This document shows positions 6,697 to 6,984 of a stretch of 29,042 nt of DNA, in pieces. Where the stretch lies: IMG/VR virus record IMGVR_UViG_3300029911_000006. One strand, written 5' to 3'. The position numbers and the translations under genes were made by a program. Origin of the DNA: a virus (lineage: Duplodnaviria; Heunggongvirae; Uroviricota; Caudoviricetes). The notes beneath the pieces are model-generated. The model worked only from the letters and a program-made list of their open reading frames with translations. It was not told where the DNA came from and ran no database searches. Each line of letters begins with the position of its first letter. Positions within the stretch are counted from its first letter, which is position 1.

Positions 6697-6727
6697 AAAC
6701 TAAAAAGCCACCCGAGTTGGGCGGCTT
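6697..6727 (-). terminator. rho-independent terminator immediately 5' of tRNA-Ser(GGA): AGCCGCCC-AACUC-GGGUGGCU followed by UUUUUAGUUUU
   Basis: 8-bp GC-rich stem with a 5-nt loop and a U-tract, read on the minus strand. Confidence 0.6.
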
Positions 6728-6766
6728 TGGTATCTTGCTGAAGTCTGTGTTTACTTATCCACAGTA

Positions 6767-6844
6767 TCAAACGTTCACCACGCCGCCGCCAGTCCATGAA
6801 CTGGATGAGGTAGAGCTTGACGATATGGATAACGTGTTCTTCAT
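6767..6844 (-). CDS. 25-codon Ser-rich leader peptide MKNTLSISSSSTSSSSWTGGGVVNV
   Basis: Leaderless ATG 6 nt downstream of TATTAT. Nine Ser codons use all six Ser codons (TCC, TCG, TCA, AGC, TCT, AGT); also ATA and TTA. The stop lies 40 nt before the terminator. Confidence 0.4.
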   Translation of the reverse strand: MKNTLSISSSSTSSSSWTGGGVVNV

Positions 6845-6984
6845 GTCTGTATAATACTACCAAAGTTCGAAAAGTGAACAACTATTTTTTGAATTATTTC
6901 GCTGTAGCTTAGAATCTCCCCGGCTTCAAGGGCTTGCTCGTACAGGATACGGGCCTCTTCATGGGTGTAGGCGATTGGTGACAT
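6841..6984 (-). CDS. small hypothetical protein (47 aa, MSPIAYTHEEARILYEQALEAGEILSYSEIIQKIVVHFSNFGSIIQT)
   Basis: Found by manual translation; its 3' end would contain the leader promoter, and its stop overlaps the leader ATG (ATGA). Confidence 0.25.
   Translation of the reverse strand: MSPIAYTHEEARILYEQALEAGEILSYSEIIQKIVVHFSNFGSIIQT
6851..6881 (-). promoter_or_regulatory. promoter-like element TTGTTC-N19-TATTAT driving the leader peptide / tRNA-Ser attenuator
   Basis: -10 at 6851-6856 and -35 at 6876-6881 on minus; A-tract upstream; same architecture as four other sites in the window. Confidence 0.4.

Follow-up and report, generated by a model that had tools for sequence, protein, structure and literature searches.

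How can a transfer RNA (tRNA) gene be transcribed when an intrinsic terminator runs up to its 5' end? The question is raised by IMG/VR virus record IMGVR_UViG_3300029911_000006 (Caudoviricetes), a stretch of 29,042 nucleotides (nt) referred to here as the window, in which a promoter, a short serine-rich open reading frame (ORF) and a terminator precede the gene for tRNA-Ser(GGA). These elements form a self-contained module of about 190 nt on the minus strand (6881-6696), the strand that also carries all five elements described in the initial annotation of the locus. We consider it likely that the module is a ribosome-mediated (leader-peptide) transcription attenuator controlling a phage tRNA operon. 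The signal is probably the Ser-tRNA supply, to which the module would respond as a feedback sensor. Our confidence in the architecture is high, and our confidence in the physiological signal is moderate. Computation finds the parts conserved, two mutually exclusive folds, and covariation between the paired segments. The module exceeds chance, recurring in seven distinct phages (the members) with folding z-scores from -2.5 to -6.5. Its elements in the window are as follows.

6891-6883, minus strand: A-tract caaaaaata, read from the sequence.
6881-6876, minus strand: -35-like hexamer TTGTTC, with a 19-nt spacer to the -10 hexamer.
6856-6851, minus strand: -10 hexamer TATTAT, invariant in 7/7 members.
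6844-6767, minus strand: leader ORF MKNTLSISSSSTSSSSWTGGGVVNV, 25 codons and a TGA (6769-6767), the only frame open in all seven members.
6832-6830, minus strand: rare codon TTA, codon 5 of the ORF.
6829-6797, minus strand: regulatory run, codons 6-16, with nine Ser codons and the rare codon ATA by codon count.
6835-6819, minus strand: segment 1, with CCAUAUCGUC, from the full-leader minimum-energy fold in 7/7 members and the RNAalifold consensus.
6804-6789, minus strand: inner hairpin between segments 1 and 2, built of Ser codons.
6787-6771, minus strand: segment 2, GGCGGCGGCGUGGUGAA, ORF codons 20-25, whose partner is segment 1 or segment 3.
6787-6720, minus strand: antiterminator, segments 2:3, with GGCGGC:GCCGCC, UGGUG:UACCA and apical helices.
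6728-6704, minus strand: terminator, segments 3:4, AAAGCCGCCC-aacuc-GGGUGGCUUU, 10 pairs (six G-C and one G-U) and a 5-nt loop.
6703-6696, minus strand: U-tract UUAGUUUU, reaching the 5' end of the tRNA.
6695-6606, minus strand: tRNA-Ser(GGA), the first gene past the terminator in 7/7 members.

The leader ORF is set apart by its codons. Nine of its 25 codons specify Ser (TCA three times, TCC twice, and TCG, TCT, AGC and AGT once each), covering all six types. Ser makes up 6.4% of the codons across 15 long genes of the window, and nine Ser within 12 residues is reached by no other ORF of the window. The count agrees with the initial annotation, which had reported a 25-codon ORF at 6844-6767 with nine Ser codons of all six types; the gene callers had missed it. 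The downstream tRNA-Ser genes (GGA, UGA, CGA and GCU) match the Ser codons of the leader.

Relatives of the locus were reached by several routes. The adjoining nicotinamide adenine dinucleotide (NAD)-dependent ligase gene led to the IMG/VR contig L001 (79% amino-acid identity), the only contig obtained in scans of IMG/VR. Homologues (49-65% identity) of a 149-amino-acid protein encoded 3' of tRNA-Ser(GGA) led to further contigs, and a pattern scan of metagenomes added two members. Contigs L002-L013 are 100% identical to the window over the region, hence uninformative, and were left out. In the six other members, the neighbouring 149-amino-acid protein is 56-65% identical to that of the window. 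All seven distinct members show one order, namely promoter, Ser-run ORF, terminator and tRNA-Ser(GGA). Their leader peptides are listed below.

Window: MKNTLSISSSSTSSSSWTGGGVVNV
L001: MKNMISISSSSSSSSTSGWDGMGVCA
L014 (= L015, L026): MKNTLTISSSSSSSSTGGDGMVCV
L018: MKNTHTISSTISSSSSSGRGVSA
L030: MKNTLTISSISSSSSSSGGRGVCV
L037: MKNTLSISSSSSSSSSSGGGMGVRD
L053: MKNTLTISSISSSSSSSRDGVVSNV

The ORFs of the members are 23-26 codons long, their lengths differ by whole codons, and each holds 8-11 Ser codons (7/7). No leader lacks a codon for any of the four downstream tRNA-Ser isoacceptors. The Ser frame alone is open from the ATG to a similarly placed stop in 7/7 members; the other two frames contain stops in most of them. 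Ser is retained despite synonymous changes, including eight pairwise switches between the TCN and AGY boxes in codons 1-11, each of which requires two or three base changes. The N-terminus of the peptide (MKNT) is conserved. The C-terminal third is variable as protein, yet its RNA stays G-rich, and the stretch 3' of the stop varies freely in length. In a search for conservation in relatives, as the initial annotation had proposed, the ORF, the Ser run, the G-rich segment and the terminator were thus found to be kept in six other phages, with compensatory changes. It is hard to reconcile this with a chance ORF whose Ser run is accidental and whose hairpin is the ordinary terminator of an upstream ligase operon. 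That account would fit the neglect of the ORF by gene callers and the overlap of its ATG with the stop of a 47-amino-acid ORF, but it is contradicted by a frame, a Ser run and a stop position kept in seven phages with differing flanks, by the conserved promoter 5' of the ORF, and by the folding z-scores (-2.5 to -6.5). We give it practically no credence. A precursor of a ribosomally synthesised and post-translationally modified peptide such as a lanthipeptide, which would also be rich in Ser, Thr and Cys, was considered and rejected; Cys is not conserved, the C-terminus is free to vary, and there are no modification genes nearby.

Two rare codons accompany the Ser run. For Leu and Ile, the codons that this phage uses least are TTA (2.6 per 1000 codons) and ATA (3.8 per 1000), and the window leader contains one of each (TTA at 6832-6830 and ATA at 6826-6824). 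ATA is found in 7/7 leaders; where ATC has replaced it as codon 7, it has moved to codon 10 or 11. TTA is found in 5/7; the two leaders without it, L001 and L018, are also without tRNA-Leu(UAA) in the DNA retrieved. The initial annotation had matched these codons to phage tRNA-Leu(UAA) and to an atypical tRNA with a probable UAU anticodon; both codons are indeed present, and tRNA-Leu(UAA) and tRNA-Ile(UAU) lie in the cluster. The leader may additionally sense these two tRNAs.

Promoter and start codon are arranged alike in the members. TATTAT lies 6-10 nt from the ATG in 7/7, and in the window the ATG (6844-6842) is six nt 3' of it. Where upstream sequence is available (six members), TTGnnn is located 18-19 nt 5' of TATTAT in five, and the A-tract is likewise present in five; L018 has a perfect -35 element (TTGACA-18-TATTAT). 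The pattern TTG-N21-GTATTAT has one exact match in the whole window, which is the leader promoter. A second call by the promoter scan, TTCACT-16-TATTAT (6878-6851), uses the same -10 hexamer. No further promoter-like site was found on the minus strand within 3500-9500, and over the same range the 6728-6704 hairpin is the sole terminator-like site on this strand. There is no Shine-Dalgarno-like tetramer in the 15 nt 5' of the window ATG, and a Shine-Dalgarno sequence is absent in 7/7 members. The promoter geometry suggests that the leader messenger RNA (mRNA) is leaderless or nearly so. The initial annotation had described the promoter as TTGTTC-N19-TATTAT, followed six nt past the -10 element by an ATG with no Shine-Dalgarno sequence. 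The hexamers, the 19-nt spacer and the ATG stand; the coordinate required correction, as 6876 is the end of TTGTTC and not its start. It had missed an overlap with a 47-amino-acid ORF (6984-6841, minus strand), which has a good Shine-Dalgarno sequence, and whose stop TGA overlaps the leader ATG (ATGA). The last 15 or so codons of this ORF traverse the leader promoter. It could couple translation into the leader on transcripts arriving from upstream.

The RNA of the leader has two predicted folds, and the position of a ribosome would decide between them. In the ribosome-free full leader, the 1:2 helix, the inner hairpin and the 3:4 terminator make up the minimum-energy fold in 7/7 members, with z-scores against dinucleotide shuffles of -2.5, -6.0, -3.9, -6.5, -5.8, -3.7 and -5.7. 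RNAalifold recovers all three from the unedited MAFFT alignment. The sequence CCAUAUCGUC of segment 1 is nearly invariant and corresponds to codons 6-9. Counterparts of the inner hairpin are UCUAG..CUAG in L018, L030, L037 and L053, and CAUCCAG..CUGGAUG in L001. The terminators of the members consist of a G+C-rich stem of 9-14 bp and a U-tract (7/7), with tRNA-Ser(GGA) starting 0-15 nt beyond. For the fold with a stalled ribosome, the RNA was masked to about 13 nt past the P site (an assumed footprint) and the 3' arm of the terminator was left out. With the ribosome on a Ser codon, segments 2 and 3 pair in 7/7 members (-24 to -35 kcal/mol, z-scores -3.5 to -5.8). The terminator hairpins alone have energies of -16 to -23 kcal/mol across the seven members. 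The antiterminator of the window has an energy of -26.3 kcal/mol, or -32.4 kcal/mol with the inner hairpin (z-score -3.5). In the antiterminators of the seven members, the proximal helix consumes 5-7 bases from the 5' arm of the terminator; the bases immediately 5' of this arm go into the middle helix. The apical helix UCUGC:GCAGA occurs in four members and accounts for the conserved AAGCAGAA motif. A ribosome placed at the stop codon masks segment 2, and the terminator then forms while the antiterminator does not. Segment 2 ends within the last few ORF codons, at or just before the stop, in every member.

These folds confirm the outline of the initial annotation and enlarge it. A pairing that rivals the terminator exists, as it had supposed (-24 to -35 against -16 to -23 kcal/mol in 7/7), and GGCGGC (6787-6782) can indeed pair with GCCGCC of the terminator 5' arm. 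This GGC:GCC pairing is not the whole antiterminator, which consists of three stacked helices, and the 5-bp hairpin noted at 6764-6745 exists as the tip of this much larger structure. The textbook terminator abutting tRNA-Ser(GGA) is present, with 10 pairs instead of an 8-bp stem, and the tRNA starts at 6695. The proposed logic of the trp/his type is supported, but the account was partial, having missed the 1:2 helix between the early Ser codons and the G-rich end of the ORF.

Covariation links the segments to each of their partners. Position +4 of segment 3 is U in L001 and L053, where the partners in segments 2 and 4 are both A; position +5 is U in L030, again with both partners A; and L018 alone has U at both partners of position 0. 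Three segment-3 positions have therefore changed jointly with both alternative partners. One position of the middle antiterminator helix is U-A, G-C, A-U or G-U among the members. In the terminator, every cell is paired over the seven members and two pairs are altered on both sides; the covariation score was matched by 1/500 shuffles, and slid controls were 29-61% paired. RNAalifold on the unedited 2:3 alignment gives 11 pairs, four with compensatory changes. When the duplexes of cognate segments were compared with swapped ones, 6/720 permutations did as well for 2:3, 22/720 for 1:2 and 4/720 for 3:4. A covariance model (R1) found 7/7 members at 105-139 bits; beyond these, its only matches over 91 kb were two weak ones on the reverse strand, on the terminator. 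A single column-wise count for 1:2 and 2:3 was dropped, as the R1 alignment left register shifts uncorrected.

The same data bear on whether the unit from promoter to terminator is simply a small gene in its own right, whose product is a structured small RNA or a Ser-rich micropeptide, while constitutive leak-through or transcription from upstream supplies the tRNAs and nothing is switched. Compensatory changes that keep the 2:3 complementarity and also match segment 4 are unexplained on such a view, as are the constant linkage to tRNA-Ser(GGA) across contexts and the freely varying C-terminal third of the peptide, and genes for modification or export were not found in the neighbourhood. Its appeal lies in the 1:2 hairpin and terminator, which together resemble a typical small RNA, in the conserved MKNT, and in the interrupted U-tracts, through which the terminators may leak. 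Taken together, we judge a separate gene to be very unlikely.

A leader-peptide attenuator would use the two folds as follows. A sigma-70-type promoter would fire 0-3 nt before the AUG, giving a short mRNA that is leaderless or nearly so. A ribosome would read MKNT and then 8-11 Ser codons that sample each Ser box, and thus each isoacceptor. With ample Ser-tRNAs it would reach the stop and mask segment 2, and after its release 1:2 would pair. Either way the 3:4 terminator would form, and transcription would stop in the U-tract before tRNA-Ser(GGA). If any Ser-tRNA were scarce, the ribosome would stall in the run and mask segment 1; the free segment 2 would capture nascent segment 3, the three-tier antiterminator would block the terminator, and the polymerase would continue. 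Read-through would yield tRNA-Ser(GGA), and probably also three further tRNA-Ser, tRNA-Leu(UAA), tRNA-Ile(UAU) and tRNA-Met. The net effect would be negative feedback on the tRNA supply itself. The gap of 0-15 nt between terminator and tRNA leaves no room for a promoter, so tRNA-Ser(GGA) must arise by read-through.

Ser is the amino acid that the members hold on to. They keep 8-11 Ser codons from all boxes (7/7) through box switches, a tRNA-Ser gene is the first under control in every case, and the four tRNA-Ser isoacceptors predominate in the clusters, whereas a generic slow stretch requires no single amino acid. This makes it improbable, in our opinion, that a real attenuator at this site reports general translation capacity (such as shut-off of the host, availability of ribosomes or elongation blocks of any kind) with the Ser run as a mere slow stretch, even though a stall anywhere in codons 5-14 would act on the two alternative folds, the leader retains the rare ATA and TTA as well, and leaderless initiation depends on the state of the ribosome pool. 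A more specific role for the Ser-tRNA sensor can be put forward only tentatively, and we rate it as rather unlikely. The module may be an inducible counter-defence or takeover sensor, in which the replacement tRNAs are silent until loss of host tRNA-Ser stalls ribosomes. In this version, host tRNA-Ser would be cut by an anticodon nuclease or a VapC-like toxin, or degraded during infection, and host tRNA-Leu(UAA) and tRNA-Ile(UAU) would be sensed likewise through TTA and ATA. If true, it would be the first known viral circuit that gauges the host tRNA pool and answers with tRNA synthesis.

Several points weigh against attenuation by Ser-tRNA supply. We infer the transcription start, translation of the ORF, stalling, read-through and the extent of the operon from the sequence. 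Extra tRNA-Ser is no remedy for a shortage of the amino acid serine, and the loop is physiologically sensible only if tRNA, not serine, runs short. In the full-length RNA with a stalled ribosome, the terminator is favoured at equilibrium by about 3-10 kcal/mol in most members, and antitermination would then have to be kinetic, through the order of synthesis. Antitermination in the trp leader is likewise kinetic. The members are few (n = 7) and mutually related. The registers of the helices slip by one base or two codons between members; for this reason covariation was read per sequence, by pair tables and the duplex test, and not from one column-wise alignment.

Downstream of tRNA-Ser(GGA), the remainder of the controlled unit is probably the minus-strand interval 6479-4261, which we take from its layout to be a single transcript. 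Small ORFs are interspersed among its genes.

6479-6030, minus strand: 149-amino-acid ORF.
5685-5600, minus strand: tRNA-Ser(GCU).
5594-5507, minus strand: tRNA-Ser(CGA).
5299-5207, minus strand: tRNA-Ser(UGA).
4870-4794, minus strand: tRNA-Met.
4452-4366, minus strand: tRNA-Leu(UAA).
4355-4261, minus strand: tRNA-Ile(UAU).

In the other members, further tRNA-Ser genes are found wherever the contig extends, with five tRNA-Ser in a row in L037. The 149-amino-acid protein contains CxxC motifs and is conserved 3' of tRNA-Ser(GGA) in several members. It belongs to PHROG 18490 (function unknown), a Pfam scan gave no match, and its AlphaFold model is poor, with a predicted local distance difference test (pLDDT) score of 55.7. 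It may be co-regulated with the tRNAs. At 95 nt, the tRNA-Ile(UAU) gene is unusual for an Ile tRNA, and it carries some 20 inserted nt in the region of the variable arm. Just 5' of the 149-amino-acid ORF (about 6494-6523, minus strand) there is a perfect T-arm-like hairpin, GCTGGTTCGAATCCAGC, where no tRNA was called; possible explanations are a relic of a tRNA gene and a signal for processing. In L001, the tRNA-Ser(GGA) homologue (12483-12568, plus strand) was not called by ARAGORN and has a shortened T-loop region (GGGGTTCCCCCC); either decay of this copy or a fault in the assembly may account for this.

The genes 5' of the module differ between members, with the 47-amino-acid ORF in the window, a 224-amino-acid ORF in L001, a 152-amino-acid ORF in L014 and a divergent gene in L018. 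The differing neighbours imply that the module moves as a unit with the tRNA, and the divergent gene in L018 implies that it needs its own promoter. Mobile endonucleases are scattered round the locus. The ligase of L001 (6001-8806) is split into parts of 305 and 320 amino acids by an opposite-strand ORF of 323 amino acids, two HNH-like paralogues lie among the L001 tRNA genes (12610-13137 and 14097-14648), and a GIY-YIG gene adjoins the ligase in the window lineage (L002, 486-1124).

Metagenome contigs, the longest of 431,749 bases, carry exact copies of window proteins, which places the window in an uncultured giant phage. The samples with these contigs are from peat and wetland (for example JGI 3300030688). 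No near relative of the window was found among the 50,697 deposited phage records of INPHARED, where lower stringency gave tRNA-level matches only; the two of these that were checked, Escherichia phage BF17 and one Ralstonia record, have no Ser-run ORF 5' of tRNA-Ser. Eleven matches in 185,579 species genomes were rejected as chance, since they lie inside unrelated genes, mostly on the opposite strand of a Caulobacterales gene. Matches in L022, L024, L027, L039 and others outside the family from the metagenome scan were set aside as chance likewise. In L019, L020, L054 and L055, neither tRNAs nor a leader is found near the 149-amino-acid gene, and L052 begins too near this gene to score for the module.

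Elsewhere in the window, a protein with a dATP/dGTP diphosphohydrolase N-terminal domain (16723-17688, minus strand) and a MazG-like pyrophosphatase (3127-3537, minus strand) may act in nucleotide-pool editing. An ABC ATPase, a permease-like protein and a 613-amino-acid protein with an OmpA domain (21366-25002, minus strand) are unusual phage cargo, and this run hints at a Gram-negative host.

The module has all the structural features of leader-peptide attenuators that can be computed: an ORF with a Ser cluster, an intrinsic terminator, mutually exclusive 1:2, 2:3 and 3:4 pairings, and the placement of the stop. The genes it would control serve the supply of the sensed aminoacyl-tRNA, as in other members of the class; tRNA-Ser genes are a new type of target for it. 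With the proteobacterial attenuators (trp, his, leu, thr, ilv and pheA) it shares a short promoter-proximal ORF with a run of regulatory codons, four segments, an intrinsic terminator before the first gene and a fold decided by ribosome position. The his leader, with seven consecutive His codons, is closest in form. Unlike these systems, the module uses Ser codons of all six types read by four isoacceptors, targets tRNAs, is phage-borne, lacks a Shine-Dalgarno sequence (leaderless by its geometry), and has segment 2 wholly inside the ORF. The pheST operon of Escherichia coli (pheM leader) is a leader-peptide attenuator of phenylalanyl-tRNA synthetase. Here too the target is a translation-apparatus gene for the amino acid of the regulatory codons, and feedback acts on charging capacity and not on synthesis; pheST differs in controlling a synthetase, in being cellular, in its Phe codons and in its conventional ribosome-binding site.

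T-box RNAs also monitor a single tRNA species and, according to its state, select the terminator or the antiterminator ahead of genes for the matching amino-acid system. They bind uncharged tRNA directly and do not need translation, whereas the conserved feature of the phage module is a presumably translated frame. No match to a T-box model was found in the module even at E <= 10. No Rfam family matched the module at its gathering threshold; below it, Phe_leader (RF01859; 23.8 bits, cut-off 55, E = 0.085) and Trp_leader (RF00513; 17.6 bits, cut-off 41, E = 0.53) matched the terminator region. The mycobacterial 'Cys ribulon' comprises leaderless short ORFs with poly-Cys runs that exert translational control on cysteine metabolism genes (bioRxiv 10.1101/834739). 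The shared features are a short ORF starting at a 5' AUG, a run of codons for one amino acid, and a stalled ribosome that remodels the downstream RNA; in contrast, the phage module gates an intrinsic terminator before a tRNA. Phage tRNAs have been described as acting against host defences that target tRNAs, with phage clusters replacing host tRNAs, and the named targets of VapC-type nucleases include tRNA-Ser GGA, UGA and CGA (PMC10264068, PMC11464382, PMC11555353). The last point makes a defence-sensing role conceivable, as a speculation. These papers describe the tRNAs themselves and not a need-dependent sensor switch. Our full-text literature searches returned no report of leader-peptide attenuation of tRNA genes, in keeping with the remark in the initial annotation that such an arrangement had not been seen described, and none of leader-peptide attenuation in a virus.

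The module would thus represent a previously undescribed, conserved form of ribosome-mediated transcription attenuation. To our knowledge, the cases of leader-peptide attenuation on record are operons for amino-acid biosynthesis and one for a synthetase, and tRNA genes are not among them. As a compact and self-contained module with clear predictions, it can be tested with reporters without a cultured phage. It also provides a search template for sensors of other amino acids, namely a short ORF rich in cognate codons, a terminator and then a tRNA. If our reading is true, the loop would be a direct one, in which transcription of the tRNAs for Ser codons is set by how fast ribosomes move along such codons. 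This suggests that phage tRNA clusters can be regulated by need and not merely expressed, which bears on why phages carry tRNAs, be it to compensate for codon usage, to replace a host pool in decay or to evade defences that cleave tRNAs.

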